Assembly: GCA_031265685.1 (NCBI GenBank)
Contig: JAISCI010000073.1
Location: 8,915 to 72,914 of the forward strand
DNA: 64,000 bases
From: Clostridiales bacterium
GTDB taxonomy: Bacteria; Bacillota; Clostridia; Lachnospirales; WRAX01
Direction of reading: 5' to 3'
Shown: positions 32,796-54,810 of the stretch, in pieces
Position numbering within the stretch: the first letter of the stretch is position 1
How the letters are laid out: each line of letters starts with the position of its first letter
Position numbers and translations under genes: made by a program
The notes under the pieces: generated by a model
Databases searched by the model: none
Seen by the model: the letters and a program-made list of their open reading frames with translations, nothing else
Told to the model about the DNA's origin: nothing

Positions 32796-32797
32796 TG

Positions 32798-32924: not shown

Positions 32925-32947
32925 CGCAATACCGGGAGGAACGGCGA

Positions 32948-34788: not shown

Positions 34789-36227
34789 TGGGTATGGATG
34801 ATATAGGTGAGACGATATTCAAAAAACCCGCCGAGGAATGCGCGGTTTTCGGCACAAGCCTTCTTATCGGCGAGGCCGCCGGGATAACCTGCAACGGCCT
34901 GATGGCGCAGCAGCACAGAGGGCAGGAGGGCGCGGGGATCGCCGTGCTCTCGGGCAGCGCGATTACGTGCGTAAAGAACCGCGGGCTGGTTTCCGAGGTG
35001 TTCTCCGGGGATGCGCTTAGTCAGCTGCCGCCCAGCGGCATATCGGTCGGGCATACGCGTTACTCGACGACGGGTTCAAATCATCTGAAAAACGTCCAGC
35101 CATTTGTGACGGAATACCTGAAGGGCCGTATCGCGACCGTCCACAACGGCAACGTGGTCAACGCTACGGAGATACGCTCCGAGCTGAAGGAGCGAGGCGT
35201 GGATTTCTCCGCGTCCAGCGACAGCGAGGTTATATCGGCGCTGATCGCGTATGAGGCGCTGGAGGCGGGGGATATCGTGGGGGGCGTAGTGGGCGCGGCG
35301 AAGCGGCTGCGCGGGGCGTTTTCCCTCATCGTCATGAATAATGAGAATAAACTGATCGCCGCGCGCGACCCTTACGGCTTCCGGCCGCTCTGTTTCGGGC
35401 GCAACGAATGGGGACGCGCCGTCGCCAGCGAATCGTGCGCGCTCGATTCAACCGACTTCGCTTTCGAGCGCGACGTGGAGCCGGGCGAGGTGATCGCGTT
35501 CCAGAACGGCGGGGTCATATACGACGAGAAGCCGCTGACCTCAGCGAGCGTCGGGCTGTGCGTGTTCGAGTACGTCTATTTCGCTCGGCCCGATTCCGTC
35601 GTGGACGGGCTTTCGGTATACGAGGCGCGGTACAACATGGGCGCGAGGCTTGCCGCCGAACATCCCGTCGAGGCGGACGCCGTGTGCGGCGTGCCGGATT
35701 CGGGGATAGAGGCGTCGTTCGGGTATGCCGCGGCGAGCGGGCTGCCGCTGGTATCGGGATTCGTCAAAAACCGCTACATCGGGCGCAGCTTCATCTGTCC
35801 GACGCAGACGGCCCGCGAGTCCGCCGTAAAAATGAAGCTGAACCCGCTCCGCGCGAACATTGAGGGCAAGCGGATCGTCCTGGTGGACGATTCGATAGTG
35901 CGCGGCACGACCAGCGCGAAGATCATAGCGGCGATGCGCGGCGCCGGGGCGCGGGAAGTGCATATGCGCGTATCGTCGCCGCCGTTCCGCCACGCGTGTC
36001 ATTTCGGCACGGACATAGACCGCGAGGAGAACCTGATCGCCAACCATATGTCGGTATCGGAGATCGCGCGGAAACTCGGCGCGGACTCGCTGGGCTACAT
36101 CAGCGAGGATGGGCTGCGTATCGCGTGCGGCAAGTGCCGCCTGCCGTTCTGTATGGGGTGCTTCAACGGGCGTTACGGTGTGGATCCGAAGGGGAGCAAT
36201 CTGGGAAAGATGCTGATGGAAGGCTAG
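34785..36227 (+). CDS. purF: Amidophosphoribosyltransferase
   Basis: 480 aa. Propeptide followed by the Cys nucleophile in ..EECAVFG, then QHRGQEGAGIA, PRTase motif VLVDDSIVRGTT, and C-terminal Cys ligands. Confidence 0.9.
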   Translation: MMGMDDIGETIFKKPAEECAVFGTSLLIGEAAGITCNGLMAQQHRGQEGAGIAVLSGSAITCVKNRGLVSEVFSGDALSQLPPSGISVGHTRYSTTGSNHLKNVQPFVTEYLKGRIATVHNGNVVNATEIRSELKERGVDFSASSDSEVISALIAYEALEAGDIVGGVVGAAKRLRGAFSLIVMNNENKLIAARDPYGFRPLCFGRNEWGRAVASESCALDSTDFAFERDVEPGEVIAFQNGGVIYDEKPLTSASVGLCVFEYVYFARPDSVVDGLSVYEARYNMGARLAAEHPVEADAVCGVPDSGIEASFGYAAASGLPLVSGFVKNRYIGRSFICPTQTARESAVKMKLNPLRANIEGKRIVLVDDSIVRGTTSAKIIAAMRGAGAREVHMRVSSPPFRHACHFGTDIDREENLIANHMSVSEIARKLGADSLGYISEDGLRIACGKCRLPFCMGCFNGRYGVDPKGSNLGKMLMEG

Positions 36228-36235
36228 GCGGCGCA

Positions 36236-37018
36236 ATGAAACGTTATTTTGACGGAATTGTTCACCGGAACAAGCGTATAGCGCCCGGAGTGTTCGATAT
36301 GACGGTCGCGGGGGAGGCGGTGGCGGCGCGGCCCGGGCAGTTCGCCATGCTGTATCCCGGCGGGGATTCGCGCCTTCTGCCGCGCCCGATCAGCTTTTGC
36401 GGCGCTGACGAGAAGAACGGGCTGTACCGTTTCGTGTACCAGGCGGCGGGCGGCGGGACTACTCTGCTGGCCGCGCTCGAGCCGGGACGGACGATCCGGG
36501 CGTTGGCGCCGCTCGGCAACGGTTTTCCTGAGACACGCCCCGGGGAGAGGGCCGCGATAATCGGCGGGGGGCTGGGCGTTCCGCCGCTGTTATGGCTGAC
36601 TAGATCGCGCGCCGCGTCCGGCGCGGAGGTATCCGTATTCCTCGGTTTCCGCTCCGACCCCATACTATTGCGCGAGTTCGCGGAGACGGGCGCGGGGGTC
36701 AGCGTTTCGACTGACGACGGTTCGATGGGGTTTCATGGAAACGCCGCCGATATGTTCGAGAATTTCGCGGACGAGCCGGCGTTCGACACGGTGTACGCGT
36801 GCGGCCCGAAGCCGTTGCTGGCCCGAGCCGCGGGAATCGCGGAGAAAATCCGCGCGGCGTGCTATGTCTCCGTGGAGGAGCGCATGGCTTGCGGCGTCGG
36901 AGCTTGTTATTGCTGCGCCGTCGAAACGCGCGGAGAGACAAAGTACCGGAAATGCTGCGCGGACGGCCCTGTTTTCGACGCGAAAGAACTGGTATGGGGG
37001 GCGGGTGCCGTTGGCTGA
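36236..37018 (+). CDS. pyrK: Dihydroorotate dehydrogenase electron-transfer subunit
   Basis: Start ATG 36236. 260 aa, with an FAD/NAD-binding fold (RPISF, GGGLGVPPL) and the C-terminal 2Fe-2S ligand cluster CGVGACYCC...C. Confidence 0.85.
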   Translation: MKRYFDGIVHRNKRIAPGVFDMTVAGEAVAARPGQFAMLYPGGDSRLLPRPISFCGADEKNGLYRFVYQAAGGGTTLLAALEPGRTIRALAPLGNGFPETRPGERAAIIGGGLGVPPLLWLTRSRAASGAEVSVFLGFRSDPILLREFAETGAGVSVSTDDGSMGFHGNAADMFENFADEPAFDTVYACGPKPLLARAAGIAEKIRAACYVSVEERMACGVGACYCCAVETRGETKYRKCCADGPVFDAKELVWGAGAVG

Positions 37019-37913
37019 CACGAGCGTTAGTCTGGCGGGCGTTACGTTTAAGAATCCCGTCATAACCGCTTCGGGGACGTTCGCTAGCGGCCGCGAGTAT
37101 GCCGAGCTGACCGATTTGTCCCGTCTGGGCGGCATAACTACAAAGGGCGTATCCATGGAGCCGTGGCCGGGCAACCCGCCGCCGCGCGTCGCCGAGACGT
37201 ACGGCGGTACGCTGAATTCCGTCGGACTGCAAAACCCCGGAGTGGAACGGTTTCTGGCGGAAGACGCGCCTTTTCTGCGCGGGTGCGGGGCGCGGGTTAT
37301 CGTCAACATCTGCGGGCATACCGTGGATGAATACGCCGCCGTGGCCGAGGCGCTTGCGGATTCGGGCGCGGACATGCTCGAGCTGAACATCTCCTGCCCG
37401 AACGTGAAGCGCGGCGGCATCGCGTTCGGAACCGACCCGGAGCGAGTGCGCGAGGTTACGGAAGCCGTCCGGAAGAAGGCGCGTCAGCCGCTGATCGTCA
37501 AGCTTAGCCCGAATGTGACGGACATAACCGAAATAGCCCGCGCGGCGGAAGACGGCGGCGCGGACGCGCTCTCGCTGATAAACACGCTGCTCGGCATGAA
37601 GATCGACATACGCCGCCGCCGCCCCGTCCTGGCGAACGCCGTGGGAGGGCTGTCCGGACCGGCGATCATGCCCGTCGCCGTGCGCATGGTTTGGGCGGTC
37701 GCGAAGGCCGCGCGCGTGCCGGTCGTCGGCATGGGCGGCATAATGACGGCGCGTGACGCGATCGAGTTCATCATGGCGGGCGCCGCGGCCATAGCCGTCG
37801 GAACCGCGACGTTCCGCGACCCTAACGCGGCGGTATCCATCGCGGAGGGAATTGAGCGATTCATGGATGAAAACGGCATAAACAGCTTGAGTGAGATAAG
37901 GGGAATAGTATGA
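37005..37913 (+). CDS. pyrD: Dihydroorotate dehydrogenase B catalytic subunit
   Basis: GTG 37005 (or TTG 37011) overlapping the pyrK end. LAGVTFKNPVITASGTF, NSVGLQNPG, ELNISCPN, and GGLSGPAI motifs. Confidence 0.85.
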   Translation: MPLADTSVSLAGVTFKNPVITASGTFASGREYAELTDLSRLGGITTKGVSMEPWPGNPPPRVAETYGGTLNSVGLQNPGVERFLAEDAPFLRGCGARVIVNICGHTVDEYAAVAEALADSGADMLELNISCPNVKRGGIAFGTDPERVREVTEAVRKKARQPLIVKLSPNVTDITEIARAAEDGGADALSLINTLLGMKIDIRRRRPVLANAVGGLSGPAIMPVAVRMVWAVAKAARVPVVGMGGIMTARDAIEFIMAGAAAIAVGTATFRDPNAAVSIAEGIERFMDENGINSLSEIRGIV

Positions 37914-38497
37914 TCGGCAAAGATCGCGCGGAATGGATACTTACGGAATCCGGGGCGCTGCTGACCGGGCATTTTATACTGACAAGCGGCAGACACGCGC
38001 GGCAATACATGCAGTGCGCTAAGGTTCTCCGCCGCCCGGATTTCGCCGGGGAGCTATGCTCCGCGCTGGCCGAGGCGTTTGGGGGCGACGGCGTAGAGCT
38101 GGTCGCCGCGCCGGCCATGGGCGGTATAATCGTCGGCTACGAGATCGCGCGTCAGCTGGGCGTGCCGAGCGTATTCGCCGAGCGCGAGAACGGCGTCATG
38201 ACTTTCAGGCGCGGTTTCGCCGTGGAACCTGGTCAGCGGGTGCTCGTCGCCGAGGACGTGATCACGACGGGCGGCAGCGTCCGCGAGGTTATCGCGCTTG
38301 TCGAGGCCGCCGGAGGTATCGTCGCAGGGGTCGCGGTCCTTGTGGACAGATCGGGCGGGGCGGTCGGGTTCGGCGTAAAAAAAACGGCGGCCTATACCGC
38401 CGTCATCGAGTCGTTCGAGCCGGAGAGCTGTCCGCTGTGCGCGGCAGGCGCGGCACCGGCCGTAAAGCCGGGGAGCCGGACTTCTCCCCAAAAATGA
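37910..38497 (+). CDS. pyrE: Orotate phosphoribosyltransferase
   Basis: 195 aa. GHFILTSGRHARQY, PRTase motif VLVAEDVITTGGSVRE, and C-terminal CPLC..G.P..KPGSR. Confidence 0.9.
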   Translation: MIGKDRAEWILTESGALLTGHFILTSGRHARQYMQCAKVLRRPDFAGELCSALAEAFGGDGVELVAAPAMGGIIVGYEIARQLGVPSVFAERENGVMTFRRGFAVEPGQRVLVAEDVITTGGSVREVIALVEAAGGIVAGVAVLVDRSGGAVGFGVKKTAAYTAVIESFEPESCPLCAAGAAPAVKPGSRTSPQK

Positions 38498-39515
38498 AGT
38501 ACAGGATCACCGCCGCGACCTCGAACATACCGAGCAGCCCGAACAGCGGGTATACCCGCCCGACAAGCTCCGAGAAGCCTGTATGCGCGGCCGCGGCGCA
38601 TACCAGCGTGACGCCCAGCTTGACGGCGGTTTTTTTCGCACCCCATCGCGCGCATATCCAGTCCACTACGGCGAAGCCGTTGGCGACGGCGCTCGTCATA
38701 ATCGCCGCGACGAGGACAAAGACGTACACGCCCTCGATCAGTCTGCCGTGGCGACGGGCGATCAGCATCATAGGAATCTCCACGCGTTCGTACAATCCGG
38801 CGTTAAGATAGAGCGGCAAGGCGAAGCAGAAGCCGAGCGCTGTCAGGAACAGCCCACCGCAAAGGCCGGCGAGCTTCGCGGTTTTTCTGTTATTTACCAT
38901 ACCGCGCATACCCGACAGCACGGTTATCGCCGTCACGACGTTGTACGAAGCGTACGTGAGTGCCGAATAGACCCAGTCCCCTCCGATGGCGCTCCGGACG
39001 CCGGCGAACGCGGGCTGGGCGTCCGTAAAGAACGCGTACAGCCCGAAGAACACGCCTCCGGCCATGAGAATCGGCGCCAGAAAGGCGTTAAGCGCCAAAA
39101 GCCCTCTGGCGCCCGTCAGGAAGATTACGAAGCAGACGGCGGCCAGCGCCAGTACTCCCACCGAAAACGGAAGCCCGAACGCTTCCCGCCCCATAGCCCC
39201 AGCGCCCGCCAGCATCGCGCAGAACAGCACGCCGATAAAGAGCGTCGAGGCGGCGCTCACAGCCTTGCCGAGCCGTTCGCCGAATACGGCGCGCGCGAAC
39301 CCGTCCCAGCCGTCCAGCCGGAGCCTTGCGGAAATATCCAGAACCGCCCAGCCCGACAGCGCGAAAACAACGCCGGCGACAGACAGCCCGACGTATCCGG
39401 CGTCACCGTGCCGCACGAAGAAGCGGATTATCTCCTGCCCCGAGGCGAATCCCGCGCCGAGTACGACAGCGGTGTATATCCCGGCGGCGTTCAGAGCGTT
39501 TTTGACGTCGTTCAT
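38403..39515 (-). CDS. YkvI-family membrane protein (putative transporter)
   Basis: 370 aa with about 10-11 predicted TM segments. N-terminus AVVLGAGFASGQEIIRFF is typical of the YkvI family. The last ~31 codons run antisense to the pyrE 3-prime end. Confidence 0.6.
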   Translation of the reverse strand: MNDVKNALNAAGIYTAVVLGAGFASGQEIIRFFVRHGDAGYVGLSVAGVVFALSGWAVLDISARLRLDGWDGFARAVFGERLGKAVSAASTLFIGVLFCAMLAGAGAMGREAFGLPFSVGVLALAAVCFVIFLTGARGLLALNAFLAPILMAGGVFFGLYAFFTDAQPAFAGVRSAIGGDWVYSALTYASYNVVTAITVLSGMRGMVNNRKTAKLAGLCGGLFLTALGFCFALPLYLNAGLYERVEIPMMLIARRHGRLIEGVYVFVLVAAIMTSAVANGFAVVDWICARWGAKKTAVKLGVTLVCAAAAHTGFSELVGRVYPLFGLLGMFEVAAVILYFIFGEKSGSPALRPVPRLPRTADSSPARTTR

Positions 39516-39541
39516 ATCGTCGCCCCTTGCGCGGCGGGGGC

Positions 39542-39570
39542 GCGCTCTCGCCGCCCCCGCCCAAATATCA
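39542..39570 (-). other. GC-rich hairpin between spoIVA and the YkvI-like gene
   Basis: GGCGGGGGCG (39542-51) / CGCCCCCGCC (39561-70) with a 9-nt loop and no T-run. It may act as an RNA stabiliser or weak terminator. Confidence 0.3.
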
Positions 39571-39576
39571 GAGTAT

Positions 39577-41055
39577 TCAGAGTATAATGCAGATAAGGCC
39601 CCGGCTGCCCTCGTTGATGATCTTCTGGATGGCCTCCTGCAGCTTCATCTGCGAATCCTCGGGCATACGGTACAGCTTGCCCTGTATCCCCTCGCGAACC
39701 ATTTCGGACATGGACTTGCCGAACATGTTGAGCTGCCAGATCTTCTCGGGGTCGCCCTCCATCTCCCGCGTGAGATTGTCAACCAGTTCCTGGCTCTGCT
39801 TCTCCGTGCCGACTATCGGCGATATTTCCGTCTCTATATCCGCGCGGATCATATGTATCGCCGGCGCGGACGCTTTCAGCCGCACGCCGTATTTCGAGCC
39901 GTGTCGCACGAGCGCCGGCGCGTCCAGCCGCATCTCCTCCATCACCGGGGTTACTATGCCGTAGCCCTTGCGATTCACGTCTTCGAGCGCGGCTTTCACC
40001 TTGTCGTGTTCGCGCTTGGCCTCGGCCAGCACCTTGATTGTCGATATAAGCTGATATTCGCCGCCGATGTCCATACCGGTCGTTTCGGACAGCACCTTAT
40101 AGAACAGGTCGTCGGCGACAGAAGCCTCGATGAGCGCCGACCCGGTGCCCAGGTCGATCCGGTCCAGGAAGGCTTTCTTTATATGTTCGCTCGCCTCGAG
40201 CGACTCGGCCGCGTCCTTTATTCCGCGCAGTTTGCCGACGCACTTCGCGATCTCCTTGACGCACGCGACGATGGACGACTTGAGCCAGTGATCCATGCCC
40301 AGCGTCTCGATCCATTTCGGGGTGTTGATTCGGATCTCGCGCACGGGGAATTCGTACAGCACGCCCTCGAGTATCTGGGTTATGTCCTCGGGCTTGAGCT
40401 GAGCGGCGTTGACGGCGATGGCGGGTACCGCGTACTTCTCGGAAAGCTCCGCCTTAAGCGTGTCGGTCTCGGCGGCGTATGGCCGCGACGTGTTGATCAG
40501 GACGACGAACGGCTTGTTGATCGCCTGCAGCTCGGACACGACGCGTTCCTCGGCGTCGATATAATCGGCGCGGGGGATGTCCGTGACGCTGCCGTCCGTG
40601 GTCACGACGACGCCTATGGTCGAATGCTCGTTGATGACTTTCTTGGTGCCGTACTCCGCGGCCTCGGCGAAGGGAATCTTATCCTCAAACCAGGGAGTGT
40701 TGATCAGGCGCGGTTCGTCTTCATCGAGATAGCCGCTGGCCGACGGCACGATGTAGCCCACGCAGTCGATAAGGCGGACTTTGGCGTTCGTCGTGTCGTT
40801 CAGCTTGATCTCGGCGGCTTCGTTCGGGACGAATTTAGGTTCGGTAGTCATGATCGCCTTCCCGGTTCCGGACTGGGGCAGTTCGTCGCGGGCGCGCTCA
40901 CGGTTATGGGCGTTGTCGATATTAGGAATTACCAGAAGATCCATAAAGCGCTTGATAAACGTGGATTTCCCCGTCCTGACGGGGCCGACCACCCCGATAT
41001 AGATATCGCCGCCGGTGCGCTCGGCAATATCTCTGTAAACGTCATAGTCTTGCAT
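39577..41055 (-). CDS. spoIVA: Stage IV sporulation protein A
   Basis: 492 aa. MQDYDVYRDIAERTGGDIYIGVVGPVRTGKSTFIKRFM (Walker A) and full-length similarity to the SpoIVA architecture. Confidence 0.95.
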   Translation of the reverse strand: MQDYDVYRDIAERTGGDIYIGVVGPVRTGKSTFIKRFMDLLVIPNIDNAHNRERARDELPQSGTGKAIMTTEPKFVPNEAAEIKLNDTTNAKVRLIDCVGYIVPSASGYLDEDEPRLINTPWFEDKIPFAEAAEYGTKKVINEHSTIGVVVTTDGSVTDIPRADYIDAEERVVSELQAINKPFVVLINTSRPYAAETDTLKAELSEKYAVPAIAVNAAQLKPEDITQILEGVLYEFPVREIRINTPKWIETLGMDHWLKSSIVACVKEIAKCVGKLRGIKDAAESLEASEHIKKAFLDRIDLGTGSALIEASVADDLFYKVLSETTGMDIGGEYQLISTIKVLAEAKREHDKVKAALEDVNRKGYGIVTPVMEEMRLDAPALVRHGSKYGVRLKASAPAIHMIRADIETEISPIVGTEKQSQELVDNLTREMEGDPEKIWQLNMFGKSMSEMVREGIQGKLYRMPEDSQMKLQEAIQKIINEGSRGLICIIL

Positions 41056-41085
41056 GATGAACCCCCTCGGTTTGTAAACGGCTTA

Positions 41086-41125
41086 TACTAATCCCATTTA
41101 TCCGTCTTTTGAAATGGGATTAGGC
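41086..41125. mobile_element. Mini copy (termini only) of the nested-palindrome family in the spoIVA upstream region
   Basis: TA|CTAATCCCATTT (41088-99), a 12-nt loop, then AAATGGGATTAG (41112-23). This is a perfect 12-bp inverted repeat, 33 nt upstream of the spoIVA ATG. Confidence 0.7.
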
Positions 41126-41238
41126 TTAGTCTTATTCAATGATATATATGCGGCGGTGGTGGGGATTATCCCATTTGACGGGGAATCGGAAATGCGGTAA
41201 AAACGGCCCGCCCTTATAATGGGCCGGCCGTCGTGTCC

Positions 41239-42918
41239 TCACAATCCCTTCAGAAACTTCATGCCGTCGTCCGCGCCGCTCACTCCGCCAAGCCCCGCGT
41301 CCACCGCTGCCGAGACTTCCTTGCGGGATGTTCGCCGGATGATCTCTTTGACGGTGGGTATCGCTCCGCCCGACACGCTCAATTCGGTTATGCCGCAGCC
41401 GATGAGAAATTTTGTCATCAGGGGGTCGGCGGCGGTCTCCCCGCAGACGCCGCACGGTATGCCGCGCTTCTCGGCGGAACGCGCCGCGCGCCGTATAAGC
41501 CGCAGCACCGCCGGATCGTAAGCGCTGCAGAGCCGCGCCGTGTTCCGGTTGCCGCGGTCGGCGGCCATTGTGTACTGTGTCAGGTCGTTAGTGCCTATGC
41601 TGAAAAAGTCGGCTTCCTGGGCGAAGTGATCGGCGAGAACCGCCGCCGCCGGGGTTTCGACCATTATGCCCACGGGCGGGCATGAACCCGACGCCTCCCG
41701 CGGCAGGTCCGCCCGGACCGACTCGATAAGCGCCTTAGCGCGGCGCAGTTCCGATACCGCGGATATCATCGGCAGCATAATCCGGATGTTCCCGTAAACC
41801 GACGCGCGCAGGATCGCGCGGAGCTGGACCGTGAACAGCTCCGGTCTGTCCAGGCAATAGCGTATCGCGCGCCATCCGAGGAACGGGTTATCCTCCCGCT
41901 CAATGCCGAGGTACGGCACGGCCTTGTCGCCGCCGGCGTCCAGCGTTCGGATTATGACGGACTTCCCGGCGAACGCGAGAGCCGCTTTTTTGTATACGGC
42001 GAACTGTTCTTCCTCGGTCGGCGCCGACTGGCGGTTCATGTACAGGAACTCGGTGCGGAACAGCCCTACGCCGTCCGCGCCGGATCCGGAGGCAGGTTCT
42101 ATGTCCGATTCCAGCCCGATGTTGACGCAAAGCTCCAGCGCGAAACCGTCCGTCGTGACGGCGGGCAGGTGACGGCAACGCTCCAGTTCCGCCTTTCGGC
42201 GCGCGCGTTTTTCTATCTCCCCGCGGCAACGCTCCAGAACGTCCTCGGGCGGATCGACGATGATCTCCCCCGACGCTCCGTCCACGACGACGAGCGGCGA
42301 CCCATCCGGCAGATCGGAGACCTGAACGCCCGAAACGGCGGGTATCCCCAACGAGCGCGCTATGATCGCCGTGTGCGACGTTTTGCCGCCTGTTTCGGCG
42401 ACAATGGCGCAAACCATCGCCGGGTCGATCGACGCCGCGACGGACGTGGTAAGCTCGCGAGCGGCCAGAACAGTACCCTCCGGCAAGCCGCCCGTGTCAA
42501 ATAACGTCCTGCCAGCCAGCACCCGCAGCAGGTTCGACTTAATGTCGCGCAGGTCGGAAGCCCGCGCCGCCAGCAGCGCGTCGCCCATAGACAGGAAGAG
42601 TTCGGCGTACCTGTCTATGACTGTCGCGGCGGCGAATTCGGCGGAACAGTTCTCCGAGGCTATCATGCCGTCCATCTCGGACGTCATGACAGGATCCGAC
42701 AGCAGCATGGCGTGGCTCTCCAAGATATCGCCGCGCTCGCCGCCTTGAGCGGAGGCCTTCTCGGTCAGCAGCGCCGTAAGGCGGGCCAGCGCTCCGGCCA
42801 TTCTTTCGCGCTCGTCCGGCCGGGCGGAACCGCGCTCCACGCGCGTCTCGCCGTCCGGCAATACGACCAGCTTTCCGACGGCGATACCGTCGGAAACGCC
42901 CGTGCCTTTCAATACCAT
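41239..42918 (-). CDS. ptsI: PTS Enzyme I (phosphoenolpyruvate-protein phosphotransferase)
   Basis: Start trimmed to ATG 42918 (MVLKGTGVSDGIAVG). Active-site His region GGKTSHTAIIARSLGIPAV, and C-terminal FFSIGTNDLTQY. Confidence 0.9.
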   Translation of the reverse strand: MVLKGTGVSDGIAVGKLVVLPDGETRVERGSARPDERERMAGALARLTALLTEKASAQGGERGDILESHAMLLSDPVMTSEMDGMIASENCSAEFAAATVIDRYAELFLSMGDALLAARASDLRDIKSNLLRVLAGRTLFDTGGLPEGTVLAARELTTSVAASIDPAMVCAIVAETGGKTSHTAIIARSLGIPAVSGVQVSDLPDGSPLVVVDGASGEIIVDPPEDVLERCRGEIEKRARRKAELERCRHLPAVTTDGFALELCVNIGLESDIEPASGSGADGVGLFRTEFLYMNRQSAPTEEEQFAVYKKAALAFAGKSVIIRTLDAGGDKAVPYLGIEREDNPFLGWRAIRYCLDRPELFTVQLRAILRASVYGNIRIMLPMISAVSELRRAKALIESVRADLPREASGSCPPVGIMVETPAAAVLADHFAQEADFFSIGTNDLTQYTMAADRGNRNTARLCSAYDPAVLRLIRRAARSAEKRGIPCGVCGETAADPLMTKFLIGCGITELSVSGGAIPTVKEIIRRTSRKEVSAAVDAGLGGVSGADDGMKFLKGL

Positions 42919-42943
42919 TACATCCCCCAATTCTATCGCGTTT

Positions 42944-43210
42944 TTACAGCTCTCCCAGGCCGCTCTCGACAGCCACGGCCACGGCGGCCATGCAGGCTTC
43001 CTCATCGTCGCCGCTGACGCGCAGGATTATTTTGTCGCCGCGTTTGACGGCGGCGCTGAGGATTCCTAGCATACTCCGCGCGTTGTACTCGTTTCCGCGA
43101 ATCTCAAAGCGAACGTCGGACTTGAACGGCAGTATCGCCTTCGCGAATACGCCCGCGGGACGCATGTGCAGTCCGGACGGGTTCTTGATAGTAAGACCGC
43201 GCTCTTGCAT
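42944..43210 (-). CDS. ptsH: Phosphocarrier protein HPr
   Basis: 88 aa. His-15 region NPSGLHMRPA and a Ser-46-like region ARSMLGILS. Confidence 0.9.
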   Translation of the reverse strand: MQERGLTIKNPSGLHMRPAGVFAKAILPFKSDVRFEIRGNEYNARSMLGILSAAVKRGDKIILRVSGDDEEACMAAVAVAVESGLGEL

Positions 43211-43241
43211 TGCCGCCTCTCCTCTCTATAAACCAGTGTCA

Positions 43242-43450
43242 TACTAATCTCCATTTAAGGAATAGAAAAAATTTTTCAAGTCTGCGCCTGAACCAAGGTA
43301 ATTTTCGCGTGACAGAATTTTGCGTGAATTGAAGCATTATCGTGTGGTTCAAACGATAATGCGATGCAAAATTCGTCCGTGCGAAAATTCATTACGCGGA
43401 CGCGCTTCCGCTTTGAAAAATCTTTTCTACCAGTCTAACAGAGATTAGTA
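43242..43450. mobile_element. Full-length (205-bp core) nested-palindrome MITE-like element flanked by TA/TA
   Basis: The core 43244-43448 begins CTAATCTCCATTTAAGG.. and ends ..CAGTCTAACAGAGATTAG. It contains nested inverted repeats AATTTTCGC/GCGAAAATT, GAATTTTGC (43315-23)/GCAAAATTC (43366-74) and GCATTATCG (43334-42)/CGATAATGC (43354-62). There is no ORF. TA dinucleotides sit at 43242-43 and 43449-50. Confidence 0.8.
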
Positions 43451-44158
43451 TCAATCGCAGTACATTATTGTTGCGTGCCGGTGAAACTGCAGTACCGAAG
43501 CCGGCGCCATCGGCGTAACCGGTTCCTCGATCATCCTGCGCAGCGCCTCTTTCTTGTCCTCGCCGCACGCGATCAGCAATATGCCGCGCGCTTGCATAAT
43601 CGTGTTGATGCCCATGCTTATAGCTTTCTTCGGCATCTCCTCGCCTTTCGCGAAGAACCGCGCGTTGGCCTCCAGCGTGTCTTCCGTCAGATCGACAAGA
43701 TACGTCTCGCGCGCGAAGCTGTCCGACGGCTCATTGAAGCCGATGTGCCCGTTGCGGCCAATGCCGAGCAGCTGCAGATCTATGCCCCCCGCCTTCCGGA
43801 TCGCTTTCTCATACCGCGCGCACTCCGCCGCCGCGTCGTCCGTCGAGCCGTCCGGGATGTGAATGTTCTCTTCTTTTATATTGACGTACTGGAACAGCTT
43901 TTCGCGCATATAGTACCGGTAGCTGCGGGGGTGGAACGGCGGCAGGCCGTAATACTCGTCCAGATTAAACGTCGTTATGTCGGCAAAGTCGATTACCCCG
44001 CCGATGCGGAGCGCGGCCAGCTCGGCGTAGACGCCTTCCGGCGTCGATCCCGTCGCGAGACCCAGCGTGCTCCTTGGGTTGTGTATCATCTGCGCCGCGA
44101 TGAATATGGCGGCTTTTTTGCTCAAGTCCTGATACCCCGACGTTTTTATTATTTTCAA
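43451..44158 (-). CDS. nagB: Glucosamine-6-phosphate deaminase
   Basis: 235 aa. TTG start after AAGGGGG. LGLATGSTP, GIGRNGHIGFNEP, and ISMGI motifs. Confidence 0.9.
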   Translation of the reverse strand: MKIIKTSGYQDLSKKAAIFIAAQMIHNPRSTLGLATGSTPEGVYAELAALRIGGVIDFADITTFNLDEYYGLPPFHPRSYRYYMREKLFQYVNIKEENIHIPDGSTDDAAAECARYEKAIRKAGGIDLQLLGIGRNGHIGFNEPSDSFARETYLVDLTEDTLEANARFFAKGEEMPKKAISMGINTIMQARGILLIACGEDKKEALRRMIEEPVTPMAPASVLQFHRHATIMYCD

Positions 44159-45091
44159 TTATACCGCCCCCTTCCCTTTGCGGCACAGGCGTATCGCGCC
44201 CCAAACGGGTTCCCGTTTGATCTCCGCTACGCTTACGCGCGGATAGACGGCGCTTACGCGCGCGGCGAACATCGCCAGCAGCGTTGGGTTGTTCTGTATG
44301 CTGCCGCCGCTGACCGCGACGCTCAGATCGTCCTGCCCAAGCTTTTTAAGGATAGCGTCCGTGAGCGCGAACAGCTCCTCGGCGGCTTCCTCGAGTATCT
44401 CGCGGCAAACGGCGTCGCCCGCTTCGGCGCCTTCCTGAACCATGACGCAAAACTCCGCTATCTCGGGCTTGCCGATGCCTCCGTCTCCGTAAAGGGGTTC
44501 GATGGCGTCCGGCAGGTTGGACACGCCGAGTTTATCCATGACCTTCCCCGTGAGGACGGTCTGGCGGCCGCGCCCGTCGTAGGCCAGAAACGCGCGGCGG
44601 ATCGCCTCCTTGCCGATCCAGTACCCGGAGCCGCCGTCGTCGAGGATGTGCCCCCAGCCGCCGCACCGCGCGATTGTGCCGTCCGCGCCGGCGCCATACG
44701 CGATGGAACCCGTTCCCGAGATGATTATAACGCCCGGGCCTCCGTCCGTCGCGGCGGCCAGCGCCAGAAGGCTGTCGTTGACGGCGGCGACGGGGCAGGC
44801 GAAACCGGACTCGCGCACGAGGCTCTCCATCTGCCCGCAAGCCGCAGGAAAGTCCAGCCCGGCGCTGCCGACGCATACGCCGAGACATCCCTCGGGCGAA
44901 AGCCCGCCTTCCGCGAACATCCGCGCGAACAGCGAACGCAGTGTTTCGCGCACCTCGGAAACCTGGTTCGACGCCAGGTTGGTGCTGCCGCCGTACAGTA
45001 CAGCCACAGGCTCCTCGTTCTTATCGACCGCGAGCAGCCGGCTCTTCGTGCCGCCGCCGTCGATGCCGACGTAATACTCCATATGCCGCAT
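44159..45091 (-). CDS. N-acetylglucosamine kinase (BadF/BadG/BcrA/BcrD ATPase family)
   Basis: 310 aa. YVGIDGGGTKSRL phosphate-1 motif, ISGTGSIAYG, and GGWGHILDDGGSGYWIG. Confidence 0.75.
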   Translation of the reverse strand: MRHMEYYVGIDGGGTKSRLLAVDKNEEPVAVLYGGSTNLASNQVSEVRETLRSLFARMFAEGGLSPEGCLGVCVGSAGLDFPAACGQMESLVRESGFACPVAAVNDSLLALAAATDGGPGVIIISGTGSIAYGAGADGTIARCGGWGHILDDGGSGYWIGKEAIRRAFLAYDGRGRQTVLTGKVMDKLGVSNLPDAIEPLYGDGGIGKPEIAEFCVMVQEGAEAGDAVCREILEEAAEELFALTDAILKKLGQDDLSVAVSGGSIQNNPTLLAMFAARVSAVYPRVSVAEIKREPVWGAIRLCRKGKGAV

Positions 45092-45129: not shown

Positions 45130-46446
45130 TTACTTAAAGAATCTCGGCAGGTACCGCTTGTGCGCCTCCAGCATCTCGAGAACCACCGCCTTCGCCGCCG
45201 AGTCGGACGGCGTGAGCGGGTTGACCGAAAGCGCCAGAATGGCTTTGTCAGCGTCGCCCTCGACCGCCGCCTCGACCACGAGCCGCTCAAACGACTTGAT
45301 TTGCTGAACCAGTCCGCTGACCGCCATGGGCAGTTCGCCGACCGCGAGCGGCACGGGTCCTCCGCCCGTTATGACGCAGCTGACCTCGACGGCGCTCTCC
45401 GCCGGTATCCCCGCGATCGCGCCGTTGTTGCGCGTGTCCACGGCCTGTATGTCGCGCCGGTCGGTATAAATTGATTCGATAAGGCTGCACGCCGCGTCCG
45501 AATAATACGCGCCGCCGCGCGCCTCGAGCTGGGGCGGCTTGACGTCGAGCGTCTCGTCGCGGTACAGCTCGAACAGCTCTCGCTCGATCTTCTGTACCTG
45601 CCGCGCGCGCGTCTCCCCGGCGCGGAACCGCTCAAGCTCATCCGCCAGCTGCCGGTCCTTGAGATAGTAGTAGCTGTGGTACGGGCATGGCAGTACGCCG
45701 AGCGCCCGCAGAAACTCCGGCTCGTACCGCGCGGGCATGATGTTCTTCATCGTCGCCGCGCCGCGCTCCGGATCGGACGCAAGCTCAAGTAGCCGCCGCG
45801 TTACGTCCTTGCCGTCCAGCAGCGCGCGCAGCGCGTAAACCATGTGGTTAAGCCCTCCGAACGTGACGTTTACGCGATCCGCGCCGACGCCCAGCAGTTT
45901 CGCTATCTCCCTGCTCATGTGGATGGGTACGTTGCAGAGTCCGACGACGCGCTTTACCGCGCCGTAACGCAGACAGGCCTCCGTGACCATCCCGGCGGGG
46001 TTCGAGAAGTTGATCAGCCACGCGTCCGGGCAAAGTTCCCGCATGTCCTCCGTTATATCGAGGATAACGGGTATCGTCCGGAACGCGTTGAACATGCCGC
46101 CCGCGCCGTTCGTCTCCTGCCCGAGCATACCGTGCTCCAGCGGGACGCGCTCATCAATCTCGCGCGCCGCCAGCTGCCCCACGCGTATCTGCGTCGTTAC
46201 GAAATCCGCGCCCGCCAGCGCCTCTCGGCGGTCATACGAGAGCCGCACGTCTATCGGTAAGCCGGACTTTTTGACCATGCGGCGCGCCAGCGCCCCGACT
46301 GTCTCCAGCTTCTCCCTGCCCTCTGGGATGTCAACCAGCCAGATCTCACGCGCGGGAAGCTCGGCGTAGCGCTTGATAAAGCCCTCGATCAGTTCCGGCG
46401 TGTAACTGGAGCCGCCGCCGATCGTGACTATTTTCACGCCGTCCAT
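45130..46446 (-). CDS. GH4 6-phospho-beta-glucosidase (ChbF/CelF-like)
   Basis: Start ATG 46446 (GAGGGA RBS). KIVTIGGGSSYTPELIEGFIKRY NAD-binding N-terminus, NFSNPAG, and GLCNVP. Confidence 0.85.
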   Translation of the reverse strand: MDGVKIVTIGGGSSYTPELIEGFIKRYAELPAREIWLVDIPEGREKLETVGALARRMVKKSGLPIDVRLSYDRREALAGADFVTTQIRVGQLAAREIDERVPLEHGMLGQETNGAGGMFNAFRTIPVILDITEDMRELCPDAWLINFSNPAGMVTEACLRYGAVKRVVGLCNVPIHMSREIAKLLGVGADRVNVTFGGLNHMVYALRALLDGKDVTRRLLELASDPERGAATMKNIMPARYEPEFLRALGVLPCPYHSYYYLKDRQLADELERFRAGETRARQVQKIERELFELYRDETLDVKPPQLEARGGAYYSDAACSLIESIYTDRRDIQAVDTRNNGAIAGIPAESAVEVSCVITGGGPVPLAVGELPMAVSGLVQQIKSFERLVVEAAVEGDADKAILALSVNPLTPSDSAAKAVVLEMLEAHKRYLPRFFK

Positions 46447-46454
46447 CCAATCCC

Positions 46455-47204
46455 TCACAGTTCCGCGAAGGAACACAGCTCATGCCCGTTCGCTTTGATA
46501 AAGTCTTTTATCTCTTTACCGGTGAGAACGTCCATCTCGAAGAAGCGCCGCGTGTTGTACGAGCTGTTCTTAAAAAGAAACAGGTCGCAATAGGCCGGGT
46601 GGCACATGATCTCGAGAGACGCGCCCCGCCGCGGCGATATTATCTCCCGGAGGCGTTCGGCGGTCGCGCCGCCGCCGTAGAACGTATCGTCGAAGGCGTC
46701 GGTCGTCACGATACCCGCGTATTCGCCCGTCAGCAGGCTCCTGTCATACATACGGACCTTGACGCCGTATTTTTTCGCCAGCTTGAGGAACACGCCGGAC
46801 ACGCCGGGCAGTTTGTGCGTATGGTGGTGACTGTCGAAATGATCGGGGATTATGTCGGCTTTATATACCTTCCTGATCTGCGCCTCGTATTCGGACTCTA
46901 CCTCCGCCAGATCCAGCTCCCCGGCTCTGGCGCGGCGCTCCGTCTCCGTCAGTTTGAGGAAATTTCCGTCGGCGTCCGTCAGCGTCCTGTACGCGCCACC
47001 GACGGCCTTGCCCGCCGTCAGCGTCAGATGGACGCCGACGCCAAGCCCGGGGTTCCGGCGCGATACGCGCGCGGCGTGCCCGAAACCGGGCATACCCGCC
47101 ATCATCGTGGTCGATCGGACGACGCCGTTCCGGTAGGACTCAATGATGCCGAGGTTGACGCCCTTGGAATGCCCGAAGTCGTCCGCGTTCACAATTATTT
47201 TCAA
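46455..47204 (-). CDS. chbG: ChbG/YdjC-family carbohydrate deacetylase
   Basis: 249 aa. MKIIVNADDFGHS.GVN.GI metal-binding N-terminus and DSHHHTH. Confidence 0.8.
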   Translation of the reverse strand: MKIIVNADDFGHSKGVNLGIIESYRNGVVRSTTMMAGMPGFGHAARVSRRNPGLGVGVHLTLTAGKAVGGAYRTLTDADGNFLKLTETERRARAGELDLAEVESEYEAQIRKVYKADIIPDHFDSHHHTHKLPGVSGVFLKLAKKYGVKVRMYDRSLLTGEYAGIVTTDAFDDTFYGGGATAERLREIISPRRGASLEIMCHPAYCDLFLFKNSSYNTRRFFEMDVLTGKEIKDFIKANGHELCSFAEL

Positions 47205-49054: not shown

Positions 49055-49282
49055 GAATTTTGCATCGCATTATCGCTTGATGGAATTTTGCGTGAACCAT
49101 GCAAAATTCGTTCACGCGATAATGCTTCGAACCCGCAAAATTCCGCCTGAATCCGCAAAATTCTCAAGTAAATTTTGCCTGAACCCGCAAAACGAATTTT
49201 GCATCGCATTATCGCTTGATGGAATTTTGCGTGAACCATGCAAAATTCGTTCACGCGATAATGCTTCGAACCCGCAAAATTC
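49055..49282. repeat. Two identical 89-bp triple-nested hairpin units (139-bp period) of the GAATTTTGC family between the EIIB and EIIC cistrons
   Basis: Unit 1 (49055-49143) equals unit 2 (49194-49282), 89/89. The unit reads GAATTTTGC-atc-GCATTATCGC-ttgatg-GAATTTTGC-gtgaaccat-GCAAAATTC-gttcac-GCGATAATGC-ttcgaaccc-GCAAAATTC. The 50-bp spacer also contains GCAAAATTC and AAATTTTGC. Confidence 0.9.
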
Positions 49283-49288: not shown

Positions 49289-49597
49289 CTATTTCCCCGC
49301 CAGCTCAAGTATCTGCGCCAGCACCTTCTCGCCGTCCATGCGGCCATAGGCCATCATATCGACGACGCCGAGCTTTGTGGCTGTCCCCGCGACCGATTTT
49401 TTGAAAGCGCTCTCAAGGTAGCGCACCTGAGGCCCGAGAAGCATTATATCCGCCTGGGCCGGAGCTTTGCGGGCGTCCGCCTCGCCGACCGCGCGGACGT
49501 CTACATCTACCCCTTTCGCCAGCGCCGCTTTCCGAACCTTCTCAACCAGCAGGCTGGTTGACATACCGGCGCAGCAAACGAACATCACTTTTATCAC
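49289..49597 (-). CDS. PTS cellobiose-family EIIB
   Basis: 102 aa. MIKVMFVCCAGMSTSLLV with the phosphorylatable Cys, and LLGPQVRY. Confidence 0.85.
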   Translation of the reverse strand: MIKVMFVCCAGMSTSLLVEKVRKAALAKGVDVDVRAVGEADARKAPAQADIMLLGPQVRYLESAFKKSVAGTATKLGVVDMMAYGRMDGEKVLAQILELAGK

Positions 49598-49665: not shown

Positions 49666-50805
49666 TTAACTCAAAAACTCGAACGCCTTGAAAATCTTGT
49701 CCGCGCCGTAGACAAAGCCGCCGCACAGTCCGGCTATGCTCATCAGCGCGCTGGGGATCACTTCCGGGCGGCGGAATGTCGTTTCCGCCAAGGCCGCGTC
49801 TATGCCGTCAAACAGAGACTGGCCCAGCTCGAGATATTCGCCGCCGACCGCCACTGTCGGTATGTCGAGCGTCAGTACGCAGTTGTATATCAGTCTGCCC
49901 AGTTCAAAGCCCGTCTCGAATATCGCCCGGCGGACGGTTTCGTCGCCGTCCTTCGCCAATGCCACGATCCGCTCGAACGTAAGCGTCTCATCCGCTTCCG
50001 TCAGCCGCCGCGCCCGCTTGATCAGGCCGTCCATCGCGATTACGTCCTCGGCGCTGCCGCCGCCCGGCAGGATCGAATAGCCGATCTCACCGGCGGCGCA
50101 CCCGACGCCCTCGTAGAGTTTCCCGTCGATAACTATTCCCGCGCCAAGCCCCACTCCGCACATGACGTAGATCAGGCTGCCGGGCGGCGTCTTGAGTCCA
50201 AGCCGCGTCTCCCCGACAGCGGCAAGGTTGACGTCGTTGACGACGTATACGCCGGTCGCGTAGCGTTCCTGCAGGAAGTCCGGCAGGGCGATCTCCGTCC
50301 AGGCGTGGTGGCGCTCCTTCGAGAAATGTTCCCCGGCTTCGCCCTTTATGACGCCGGGCTGGGATATAACGATAGCCCCGAGCTTATCCGGCGCCACGGA
50401 AGCGTCGCGCAGAATAACGTCGAACGCCTCGCCCACGAGCCGGCGGCGCTCCGCGGGCGACGCGCCCGGCGGCGCCTTGACCTTGCCAAGCCCGGCCAGC
50501 TGGTATCTCAAATCGCACACAGCGCACACCGGGTCGCGGAAAGACAAATCCACCGCCCCGACATATTTGAAGCGCTCGTTGACGCGTATCAGGATCGGCT
50601 TGCGACCGCCCGACTTCGCGGCTTCGCCCTCACCCTCCTCCAACAGCACTCCAGCCTTGATCAGATCGGACACGTTGCTGGAAACGGCGGGTTTGCTGAT
50701 GCCAAGCTCTTTGGCGATCCGCGCTTTGGAGATGCCTCCGCTGCCTATAATCAGATCAATTATGGCTTTTTGATTGATGGCGCGGCTCGCCGACCTATCC
50801 GCCAC
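49666..50805 (-). CDS. ROK-family transcriptional regulator
   Basis: 379 aa. N-terminal wHTH ISKARIAKELGISKPAVSSNVSDLI, a ROK sugar-kinase-like body (GVGLGAGIVIDGKLYEG) and a Cys/His region. Confidence 0.8.
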   Translation of the reverse strand: MADRSASRAINQKAIIDLIIGSGGISKARIAKELGISKPAVSSNVSDLIKAGVLLEEGEGEAAKSGGRKPILIRVNERFKYVGAVDLSFRDPVCAVCDLRYQLAGLGKVKAPPGASPAERRRLVGEAFDVILRDASVAPDKLGAIVISQPGVIKGEAGEHFSKERHHAWTEIALPDFLQERYATGVYVVNDVNLAAVGETRLGLKTPPGSLIYVMCGVGLGAGIVIDGKLYEGVGCAAGEIGYSILPGGGSAEDVIAMDGLIKRARRLTEADETLTFERIVALAKDGDETVRRAIFETGFELGRLIYNCVLTLDIPTVAVGGEYLELGQSLFDGIDAALAETTFRRPEVIPSALMSIAGLCGGFVYGADKIFKAFEFLS

Positions 50806-51521
50806 AAAGTAATTTATGGCCGCAACCCCCGTTCTAGAGACTAGAAGCTAGAAAGATTAAGAGCAAGTTCAAAACCGTTGCCGACAGCTTGGTAAGTAAT
50901 TATTTCTTACTAAGTATAAAGCTATGATGAGTTGTTTGTCAAGGGGGTTTGAAAAAAATTTTGGTTATTTTTCTTAGACTGTCAATGTTACATCCTAAAT
51001 TCCCGTAAAAAATTATACCTACAGGAGGAAATGGGTACGGATGTTGCGTGAATACCTTGAAAATAAGGGAATATCGCGGTTTTTAACATAGTTGCGCGCT
51101 CCGCCGTGCCGCTTCGCCGCTTATGAATACAATGTCTGAGTCAGGCTTTACAGTGAGCGTGGGTATATGTATTTACAATGTATTCCGATTCGCCTTGAGA
51201 CTGTATTTTTCGCGTCTACCCTGGGCATACTGTTCTTATTTAGTTCTTGGAGGAGACTGGCGGCAATCACGCCCGCTTTTGACGACGTCGATACCGGTGA
51301 AAATCATTGCGGCGCTCCTTAAAAAATTTGGCTCCGTTTTTGTCCGTCCAAAATTCGCGCGTAATGCCATAGCCGCATACTCAGCATAAAACAGCCGGAC
51401 ATACCCCGGCGCTGGCGTTGTAATCAAGCCGCAGCGCCTGAAACTGTTTCAGGTTTGAAACATTATGACATTATAGGGATGCCGCACAGATCTAAATGAA
51501 AGGATTGTATAATGAAACCCT

Positions 51522-52379
51522 GTGTTTTTCATTATACGAGGTGCCTGTACGCGTAAACTCAAAGTTGTGTCGCTGTACGCTTTCGTTTCGATCGTCGGCG
51601 TGGGTGCGGTATTCGCGCTGGCGTTGCTGGCGAACGCCCGTTTTATACCAATCCGTATCGCTGGCGTCGCCCGGGAGGCGGACGATTCCAGCGCGGCGCT
51701 CGTAGATCGGGTCTACGACCCTAACTTTGTGTTCGCCGACCCGCCCGCGCTGGAAGCCGGGATCTACCTGCCCAAATACGACCTGACCGCGCCGGAGGAA
51801 GCGGAGCGGCTGGCCAGCCGTTTCGGCATAGACGCGGCGGCCACCGAAACTGACGACCGCTATTTCTTTGTGTCGGAGACCGGTCGCTTGGCTGTGGATA
51901 AATACGGCGGCGGTGTCGCGTTCGCCTCGGAAGGCGGCGAAACGCCGGGCGAGTGGGATCCGACGGCGCTCGCGATCGAGACGCTGCAAGGATACGGCAT
52001 TTCCACCGAGTGTATCTCCGCGGCGGAGCGGGCGGCGGGCGGGCGGCGGATCGTGGAGCTTTTCGCGGGGCTGGAGGGACGCGCGGATATGTCCGCGCCG
52101 CGCCGCCTGACATTCGACGCCGAAGGGCGCCTTCTGGAACTGCGCTGCTCTTTCGCGCGATACGAGCGCATCGCGACAGCGCGAATTATGACGACGCGCG
52201 CCGCGTATGCCTTGCTGCCAACGGATTCGCCCGATAAGGATGGACGTATCGATCTGAAGCGCTGCGAGCTGGTGTTCATCGCCGCCGACAGCGTTATCCA
52301 GCCCGCGTATCTATTCACGGGAGCGACTCCCGGCGGGGCGAACTTTTCATATTTTGTCAAGGCGGCGGTGTATGATTGA
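51522..52379 (+). CDS. Hypothetical membrane-anchored protein
   Basis: 285-aa ORF in high-GC coding-like composition, with a single N-terminal TM segment (VSLYAFVSIVGVGAVFALALLA). I recognise no motif. The start codon (GTG 51522) is uncertain. Confidence 0.45.
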   Translation: MFFIIRGACTRKLKVVSLYAFVSIVGVGAVFALALLANARFIPIRIAGVAREADDSSAALVDRVYDPNFVFADPPALEAGIYLPKYDLTAPEEAERLASRFGIDAAATETDDRYFFVSETGRLAVDKYGGGVAFASEGGETPGEWDPTALAIETLQGYGISTECISAAERAAGGRRIVELFAGLEGRADMSAPRRLTFDAEGRLLELRCSFARYERIATARIMTTRAAYALLPTDSPDKDGRIDLKRCELVFIAADSVIQPAYLFTGATPGGANFSYFVKAAVYD

Positions 52380-52422
52380 AGAAAGTTCCGCGAGCGCCCG
52401 ACGCTGATGGCAAAAGATTTTC

Positions 52423-54791: not shown

Positions 54792-54810
54792 CGGAGGTCA
54801 TAAGATACAC

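Follow-up and report, generated by a model that had tools for sequence, protein, structure and literature searches.

What is the long palindrome between a nagB-like gene and ptsH in an uncultured gut bacterium, and how did it come to lie there? We considered this question within one 64-kb stretch of contig JAISCI010000073.1 (the window, to which all positions refer). The palindrome, hereafter copy A, fills 209 bp from the nagB stop to the ptsH start. A preliminary description had presented its 205-bp core as the type copy of a repeat family moved by IS630/Tc1-mariner-type transposition. We find a modular family flanked by triplet repeats, with hairpin units inserted inside it. The family is probably a non-autonomous transposable element. 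Specifically, it would be an undescribed MITE family (MITEs being miniature inverted-repeat transposable elements), carrying REP-like hairpin units, in a spore-forming Oscillospiraceae-like bacterium. The family is new; the kind of selfish DNA is familiar. It would offer a worked example of two layers of selfish hairpin DNA, one inside the other, in poorly known Clostridia.

Anatomy of the repeat family

Copy A consists of two arms around a centre of nested hairpins. Its parts, and the triplets that flank it, are as follows.

43242-43450, unstranded: copy A, 209 bp, a complete element and probable MITE of the T type, with ends TACTAATC...GATTAGTA and three nested central hairpins
43242-43299, plus strand: left arm, with terminus TACTAATCTCCATTTAAGG, A/T block GAAAAAATTTTTCAAG and G block TCTGCGCC (arm alignment; nhmmer E 2.4e-15)
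43390-43450, minus strand: right arm, the reverse complement of the arm consensus (arm alignment; nhmmer E 3.7e-12)
43300-43389, unstranded: centre, three nested hairpin units with stems at 43300-08/43381-89, 43315-23/43366-74 and 43334-42/43354-62
43239-43241, unstranded: left flanking triplet TCA, part of a 3-nt direct repeat
43451-43453, unstranded: right flanking triplet TCA, on the minus strand the TGA stop of the nagB-like gene (43451-44158)

Rereading the sequence and searching it for inverted repeats bore out the anatomy first outlined, with its terminal arms, three nested inverted repeats and lack of an open reading frame (ORF). The terminal arms (43241-43279 and 43413-43451) are 77% complementary over 39 nt. 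The nested pairs are AATTTTCGC/GCGAAAATT (43300/43381), GAATTTTGC/GCAAAATTC (43315/43366) and GCATTATCG/CGATAATGC (43334/43354), and the innermost loop is TGTGGTTCAAA. No ORF of at least 60 amino acids lies inside copy A. The GC content is 38.8%, compared with 60.8% for the window. Folding, proposed earlier as a check, gave a single long hairpin of -78.1 kcal/mol as RNA (z -8.63; z -7.92 as DNA). None of 200 shuffled sequences was equally stable.

Most dispersed repeats in the window belong to this one family. Eleven arms, from six copies, align to a single consensus, (A)TA-CTAATCYCCATTTAAGG..AGAAAAAATTTTTCARG-TCCGCGCCTG-GAATTTTGC. With the arm profile, nhmmer returned seven arms at E <=5e-11 and three more at E 4e-6 to 3e-3, all within the window. 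The same search found no arms in L002 and L003, two foreign contigs described below. By BLAST and nhmmer, arms lie at 22863-22927, 32791-32930, 43238-43454, 63523-63647 and 60260-60322 (E 1e-17 to 3e-4), and a further arm at 41098-41129 has E 0.003. There are seven arm-bearing copies in 64 kb. They range from 40 to 209 bp, contain no ORF of at least 60 amino acids and have a GC content of 27-43% (window, 61%). The build is modular: conserved arms of ~60 nt surround no (D, E, F), one (B, C, G) or three (A) central hairpins. The recurring hairpin, hereafter the H unit, reads GAATTTTGC-KTGRWYCAM-GCAAAATTC; it is 27-31 nt long with a stem of ~9 bp. The words GAATTTTGC/GCAAAATTC occur 17 times in the window, where ~0.7 would be expected. 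The other copies and fragments are listed below.

32796-32926, unstranded: copy B, 131 bp, compact, arms plus one H hairpin (32851-32877), between glmS and glnA; flanking triplets TAA (32793-95, the glmS stop) and CAA (32927-29)
22865-22929, plus strand: copy C, left arm and half an H hairpin, cut off in the loop, directly upstream of a deoD-like gene (22945-23661)
63504-63643, unstranded: copy D, located between pth and the next gene; its arms surround a GC hairpin (GTCCGCGC...GCGCGGAC) and no central H; flanking triplets TGA (63501-03, the pth stop) and TGA (63644-46)
60263-60317, unstranded: copy E, 55-bp arms-only version at ridA/ecfT; flanking triplets TTG/TTA
41086-41125, unstranded: copy F, a 40-bp hairpin made of the termini alone (CTAATCCCATTT / AAATGGGATTAG), in the ptsI/spoIVA interval; flanking triplets TTA/TTA
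30794-30925, unstranded: copy G, degenerate, with an H hairpin at 30858-30884, between purA and glmS
49055-49282, unstranded: array of H and P hairpin units with no terminal arms, between the genes for IIB and IIC of a phosphotransferase system (PTS)
15737-15751, unstranded: weak piece, half an H unit (CGCGCAAAATTCATT), that runs across the start predicted for ORF 13997-15742

Arms or modules recur at all eight of the firm copies first reported, as judged by BLAST, nhmmer and the hairpin pattern. Two degenerate pieces fared less well: one is the weak half unit at 15737-15751, and the other, 51330-51365, is not convincing. The stretch at 49055-49282 is better described as an array of hairpin units than as a copy, having no terminal arms. 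Within it, 49055-49143 recurs exactly at 49194-49282 (89 bp, 139 bp from start to start); this is either a very recent tandem duplication or a collapse or expansion in the assembly. Nor is the 205-bp sequence the basic unit. Copy B has one hairpin in 131 bp and D, E and F have no central hairpin; on this modular build, the "type copy" is best read as the most expanded member.

Copies differ in apparent age. At their left ends, copies E and A agree at 37 of 38 positions (BLAST), which suggests a recent copying event. Copy C resembles the right arm of copy B (84% over 63 nt). A RidA-like gene (60302-60679, minus strand) also takes its last five codons and its stop from the end of copy E. The tail length of the homologue in PDB is compatible with insertion of copy E and with the alternative model alike.

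Two known systems share parts of this build. Copy B is like the ERIC/YPAL elements of enterobacteria and Yersinia, imperfect palindromes of ~127 bp, in that nearly the whole of its ~130 bp is palindromic. The likeness extends to a position in transcribed spacers directly behind stop codons, to longer variants that carry internal insertions and to a predicted RNA hairpin. However, no resemblance in sequence was detected, the hosts belong to different phyla (here Firmicutes-type Clostridia), and the family described here has 3-nt T-N-A flanks and internal insertions that are an independent hairpin repeat. The flanking repeat of ERIC is reported to be TA. The second system is BOX of Streptococcus, boxA-boxB(n)-boxC. 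There, as here, terminal modules of ~50-60 nt pair with each other around none to several internal modules, minimal "A1C1"-like copies exist (here E and F) and elements insert into one another (PMC3049150, PMC10969869). The internal modules differ: those studied here are nested palindromes rather than head-to-tail repeats, and they also occur alone, even in genes. The comparison with BOX is one of build, and no match in Rfam suggests a relation in sequence.

Searches of reference collections agree with the earlier statement that this is not a named family. No Rfam family matched at the gathering score; at E <=1 the only hit was a chance match of the mir-1892 hairpin to copy B. BLAST of copy A against phage and plasmid collections gave no match, and neither did the literature for the motif in this context. 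Exact hairpin patterns had no matches in viral and metagenome contigs. These metagenome zeros say little about the source genome because the source contig is evidently not in the collection.

Flanking triplets and the target site

Direct repeats flanking the five complete copies (A, B, D, E and F) were sought at offsets of 0-6 and lengths of 2-5. Directly outside the terminal TA, the triplets are TCA/TCA in A, TGA/TGA in D, TTA/TTA in F, TTG/TTA in E and TAA/CAA in B. These T-N-A triplets lie at offset 2 from the CTAATC/GATTAG core. They agree at 13 of 15 positions, and in three of the five copies the match is perfect. Against random AT-rich triplets, the probability of such a match is ~1e-5. 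Other settings were far weaker, with at most 16 of 25 positions matching and at most one perfect pair; the exception was TA itself (7/10). The middle base of the triplet is the same on both sides in all five copies. Hence, the triplets form a direct repeat; a palindrome that merely ran on would not give this. The upstream triplet is the nagB stop codon (TGA) in copy A, the pth stop (TGA) in D and the glmS stop (TAA) in B.

The small size, absence of coding capacity, terminal inverted repeats and dispersed AT-rich copies are all as in a MITE. The earlier characterisation as MITE-like is thus supported, and is now joined by statistical evidence for a target-site duplication (a small sample of five copies, with no empty site seen). 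The identity of that duplication is another matter. The preliminary description had TA on both sides of the element and took TA as the duplicated target. The flanks are indeed TA/TA in A, D and E. Copies B (TG/CG) and F (TA/GC) have an altered dinucleotide and keep the triplet repeat. Moreover, two related arms, the right arm of B and the left arm of C, both read GCG-CTAATC instead of the usual ATA-CTAATC, as if the CG had been inherited along with the element. TA is its own reverse complement and so prolongs the inverted repeat; the arm search runs straight through it. Most likely, the terminal TA belongs to the inverted repeat. In our reading, the element has the ends TACTAATC...GATTAGTA and duplicates a T-N-A target of 3 bp. 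The duplication lies one step further out, and taking TA..TA at face value in a palindromic element can mislead.

A single 205-bp Stowaway-like MITE, moved by an IS630/Tc1-mariner transposase that duplicates TA, would explain why TA borders the CTAATC...GATTAG core at both ends of A, D and E and at one end of F. At 3.6% of dinucleotides, TA is uncommon in this genome, and the pneumococcal RUP sets a precedent as an IS630-related MITE (PMC3049150). However, a self-complementary TA simply continues the inverted repeat, and a 2-bp duplication does not predict a significant direct repeat one step outside it. The CG shared by the B right and C left arms in place of TA points to inheritance rather than target sequence. 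The window also has no IS630-type gene. With the duplication not being the TA dinucleotide, the inference of IS630/Tc1-mariner transposition loses its only basis, and we consider this explanation quite unlikely. The T-N-A repeats instead support transposition with a different target.

T-N-A duplications of 3 bp are made by transposases of the IS5 group and PIF/Harbinger, and flank Tourist MITEs. The family resembles Tourist and the IS5-family/PIF-Harbinger elements (3-bp TNA/TWA) in its T-N-A flanks, small AT-rich body and terminal inverted repeats. Going by ISfinder and Repbase conventions, a link to IS5-group transposases would be tentative: no such transposase was found in the window, and the TACTAATC ends do not look like those of the IS5 family.

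The 27-nt H hairpin

The H units have a life outside the arms. The 27-nt hairpin pattern matches nine times at six loci of the window, where 0.00 matches would be expected. Two of the occurrences are of particular use in judging whether the unit inserts.

58525-58551, unstranded: solo H hairpin, in frame in the ATPase gene of an energy-coupling factor (ECF) transporter (56896-59265, minus strand), encoding EFCVNQAKF
63511-63537, unstranded: H hairpin with stem variant GAATTTCGC/GCGAAATTC, which splits the left terminus of copy D as a 29-nt insertion

In an alignment with 39 ECF ATPase homologues, exactly the nine residues EFCVNQAKF are missing from all 39. The copy D terminus reads TACTAA-GGAATTTCGCGTGAATCAAGCGAAATTCA-TCTTCCACTTT, compared with the consensus TACTAATCTCCATTT, and the consensus terminus can serve as a stand-in at DNA level for an empty H site. 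The array at 49055-49282 has an H unit in the loop of a GCATTATCGC/GCGATAATGC hairpin, and the same type of hairpin is innermost in copy A. The nesting order of H and P units thus differs between loci, as repeated insertion into loops would produce. The solo unit also corrects the earlier claim that every copy lies between co-directional genes, being in frame inside one. For the other copies that arrangement is uninformative, since nearly all neighbouring genes in the window are co-directional.

Among 185,579 GTDB species representatives, a narrower H pattern had matches in only two contigs, L002 and L003. Both come from other metagenome-assembled genomes and are phage-like, with genes for Siphovirus Gp157, phosphoadenosine phosphosulfate (PAPS) reductase and a portal protein. 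The PAPS-reductase gene of L002 is divided by two H units into three reading-frame pieces that, when joined, are colinear with intact homologues. A third unit, within an unannotated ORF of L002, adds EFCVVQAKL with no stop. In L003, the tail of the phage portal gene contains an in-frame H unit that encodes NFARTTQNS. The best homologues of the L002 PAPS reductase and of the ECF ATPase are only 51-57% identical. With arms that lack H (copies D, E and F) and H units that lack arms (58525, L002, L003), the distribution marks the H unit as a repeat family independent of the arms.

The stem is paired in 95.7% of cells across 14 H units. Six of the eleven pairs have changed on both sides, a result reached by none of 500 shuffles; stem variants include GAATTTCGC, GAAGTTTGC, GCATTATCG and AATTTTCGC. 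Judged from these variants, the hairpin is maintained. The loop (KTGRWYCAM) and a T.C mismatch beside it are conserved, as are the adjoining bases, with (A)G lying 5' of the unit and AT(C) 3' of it. A paired, covarying stem with a conserved loop and mismatch fits recognition of the folded hairpin. Orientation relative to transcription or GC skew showed no clear bias (5/7, few units).

These properties recall the REP/BIME/REPIN systems. H units are clustered and nested in spacers and their hairpin is kept by compensatory changes, as in those systems (PMC3116915, PMC3337134). Could arms and H all be one such system, copied through single-stranded DNA by one HUH (Y1) transposase, RAYT or IS200/IS605-like? 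Such copying would duplicate no target, and the triplet repeats would then reflect target preference. H suits this explanation as an imperfect palindrome of 27 nt whose stems covary and whose mismatch, like the bases beside the stem, is conserved. The nesting of units in one another's loops suits it too, as does the lack of a consistent duplication beside H. REPINs are inverted REP pairs that form a larger hairpin (PMC3116915, PMC3337134). However, there is no conserved GTAG-type 5' tetranucleotide. REPs are extragenic, whereas H also lies in frame in genes and in phage-like DNA. The arm-bearing copies have flanking direct repeats, which HUH transposition does not make, and each of the two modules occurs without the other. 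Neither a Y1 transposase nor a RAYT gene was found in the window, L002 or L003. We regard a single system of this kind as unlikely.

The in-frame units also recall the Rickettsia palindromic elements (RPEs) and other intragenic MITEs, in which a palindromic repeat stands in frame in a conserved housekeeping gene and adds a short peptide (PMC10969869). RPEs are ~100-150 bp units confined to Rickettsia, and encode a conserved peptide of 30-50 amino acids. The H unit is different: it is 27 nt long, encodes nine residues and also lies in the loops of other repeats.

The events could have run as follows. The basic element would be ~130 bp and almost fully palindromic, each arm running from the T-N-A target through TA-CTAATCYCCATTTAAGG..AGAAAAAATTTTTCARG-TCCGCGCC into a central loop. 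Insertion would most likely be by cut-and-paste or copy-in, with the transposase supplied in trans and the 3-bp T-N-A target duplicated. A partner insertion sequence would then have ends reading TACTAATCTCC. In this GC-rich genome a T-N-A target would often be the stop codon of the upstream gene. For copy A, an arm-bearing element may have inserted at the TGA of nagB, duplicating the stop, with H units entering its centre afterwards. The H and P units would probably be recognised as folded hairpins by a different, structure-specific enzyme, as REP sequences are. Two enzymes would thus be involved.

Several observations weigh against transposition of this kind. The triplet duplication rests on five complete copies, two of which match at only two of three positions, and for B and F the boundary comes from aligning the copies with the consensus. 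A longer inverted repeat would account for the outer T and A as well, and so the case depends mainly on five middle bases. Net H insertions vary in length (27, 29, 30 and 31 nt) and have no consistent duplication. No empty site for an arm-bearing element was found at DNA level; the closest available relatives of the encoded proteins, from Oscillospiraceae and other Clostridia metagenome-assembled genomes (MAGs), are ~53-57% identical. No transposase was detected by Pfam in the 64-kb window, to which that search was confined. As for spread beyond the source genome, the exact arm pattern had no matches in viral and metagenome contigs. Finally, most copies are only 70-85% alike and, hence, probably old.

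A free-standing H, mobile by itself and read by its enzyme purely as a folded hairpin, is a further possibility that we hold to be improbable. Such a unit would move between the chromosome and phages of gut Clostridia. It would land by preference in the loops or at the ends of other hairpins, so that nested palindromes build up, and inside genes it would persist after landing in a stop-free frame. If this were true, H would be among the smallest mobile elements described and would help to define the lower size limit of transposable DNA. It would also represent a new pairing of mobile element and enzyme, neither MITE nor REP.

A separate observation concerns the ECF ATPase gene. In L006, a locus from a distant relative (Oscillospiraceae MAG GCA_009782475.1), the orthologous gene carries a different in-frame inverted-repeat insert (10753-10913 and 11648-11758). 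It is built from CAGTTGA/CAGTGGA heptamers and their complement, encodes the peptides QLTVDSGQLTV ... YPLSTVH and lies partly at the same linker as the H insert of the window gene. The linker seems to tolerate palindromic insertions repeatedly. No arms or H units were found in L006 and L007, the relatives' loci (41 kb in total).

Neighbouring genes and expression

Copy A sits in a string of genes on the minus strand, chb-nag-ptsHI. Assignments are based on Pfam.

49666-50805, minus strand: ROK (NagC-like) regulator
49289-49597, minus strand: PTS IIB
47652 to ~48991, minus strand: PTS IIC
46455-47204, minus strand: YdjC
45130-46476, minus strand: GH4
44159-45091, minus strand: BadF-type kinase
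43451-44158, minus strand: nagB-like isomerase, adjoining copy A
42944-43210, minus strand: HPr (ptsH), on the other side of copy A
41239-43005, minus strand: Enzyme I (ptsI)

Further along, 39577-41055 (minus strand) encodes SpoIVA; hence, the source bacterium is spore-forming.

Copies cluster at purA/glmS, glmS/glnA, nagB/ptsH and chbB/chbC. This raises the question of whether the repeats are operators or RNA hairpins of the host, acting in cis on amino-sugar, PTS and nitrogen genes (glmS, glnA, nagB, ptsHI, chb) and duplicated because they are useful. A ROK (NagC-like) regulator adjoins the chb genes. The glmS gene here has no glmS ribozyme upstream (Rfam, even at E <=1). The arms end 10-40 nt upstream of ribosome-binding sites, and some have weak promoter-like matches pointing outwards. 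However, copies also lie at pth/next gene, ridA/ecfT and ptsI/spoIVA and upstream of deoD, and units occur within the coding sequence of the ECF ATPase and on phage-like contigs that belong to other genomes. The units are within operons and not at promoters, and the interrupted PAPS-reductase gene is damage rather than regulation. The chb promoter has a different palindrome and no H unit, and promoter matches are at the level of consensus noise, with none in copy A. Duplication as host regulatory sites is very unlikely in our view.

Individual functional readings were also rejected. A scan found no terminator-like site in or beside any copy; the GC hairpin is flanked by A/T runs, and the T-run precedes the stem on both strands. 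As promoters, the right arms of B, D and E (outward) match only 9/12 consensus positions, and a sequence scan of copy A gave no promoter-like site. H was discarded as a ROK/NagC operator, the palindrome at the ROK-chb promoter being a different one. The leader of glmS (30752-30950, 199 nt) is filled by degenerate copy G.

Effects on messenger RNA (mRNA) would be of another sort. Copy A would be transcribed with its neighbours, and the RNA between nagB and ptsH would fold into a very stable hairpin. Judging from ERIC, Correia and REP elements (PMC10969869), the stem may alter processing or stability of the flanking mRNA. For ERIC, effects of RNase E are reviewed in PMC10969869, and a role in mRNA stability is plausible here too. 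Correia/NEMIS elements of Neisseria are likewise small, with terminal inverted repeats, just upstream of genes and co-transcribed; in RNA, their terminal repeats pair into a stem that could be cleaved by RNase III, and promoter-like hexamers facing outwards, weak in the family studied here, are possible (PMC10969869). In contrast to copy A, which is palindromic throughout and has a 3-nt repeat, Correia elements have 26-bp terminal repeats, a non-palindromic core and a TA duplication. The repeats may thus affect expression of ptsH-ptsI, glnA and the chitobiose operon. Two gene products are altered, by a nine-residue insert in the ECF ATPase and a new C-terminus on the RidA-like protein.

The family also explains where short-read assemblies of the source organism break. 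Logan contig L001, from the same strain, is 100% identical to 34916-43313 of the window and stops inside copy A. Another, L004, stops inside the copy at 63.5 kb (copy D). Both break there because the repeat is dispersed. A third, L005, extends the source genome by 8.9 kb, all coding, with no further copy.

Other features of the window were recorded along the way. Upstream of the ROK regulator and chitobiose PTS genes, 50900-50965 (minus strand; ~50907-50960) holds a near-consensus promoter, TTGACA-17-TATACT. The palindrome AGTAAG-N8-ACTTAC follows and is likely to be the operator of the ROK protein. Around ~38000-41300, gene orientation turns from plus to minus and cumulative GC skew reaches its maximum, as converging replication forks in a terminus region would give.

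An 83-nt repeat with 82% identity occurs at 61501-61583 and 17594-17676 (reverse strand), followed by more similar stretches downstream (TTTATGAAACGAACGT...). It sits in the leaders of prs and of a gene resembling methylthioadenosine/S-adenosylhomocysteine (MTA/SAH) nucleosidase and has no Rfam match; it may be a shared promoter or leader RNA. Some 1.1 kb at 52380-53500 contain no convincing gene. This stretch opens with a duplicate, 88% identical, of the last part of the ORF before it (52422-52498 compared with 52080-52161), and its hairpin-rich part (52501-52605) is 79% identical to part of phage-like contig L003 (995-1098). It may be the remnant of an integration site. ARAGORN called a tRNA-Asp at 22002-22086, inside an ORF (21889-22740) that Pfam matches very strongly to pentapeptide repeats; of these two calls, one is probably spurious. 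Lastly, two stand-alone palindromes, 12-52 and 54800-54855, are 86% and 83% self-complementary, respectively, and have no relation to the family. Convergent genes lie on either side of the second, which is terminator-like.

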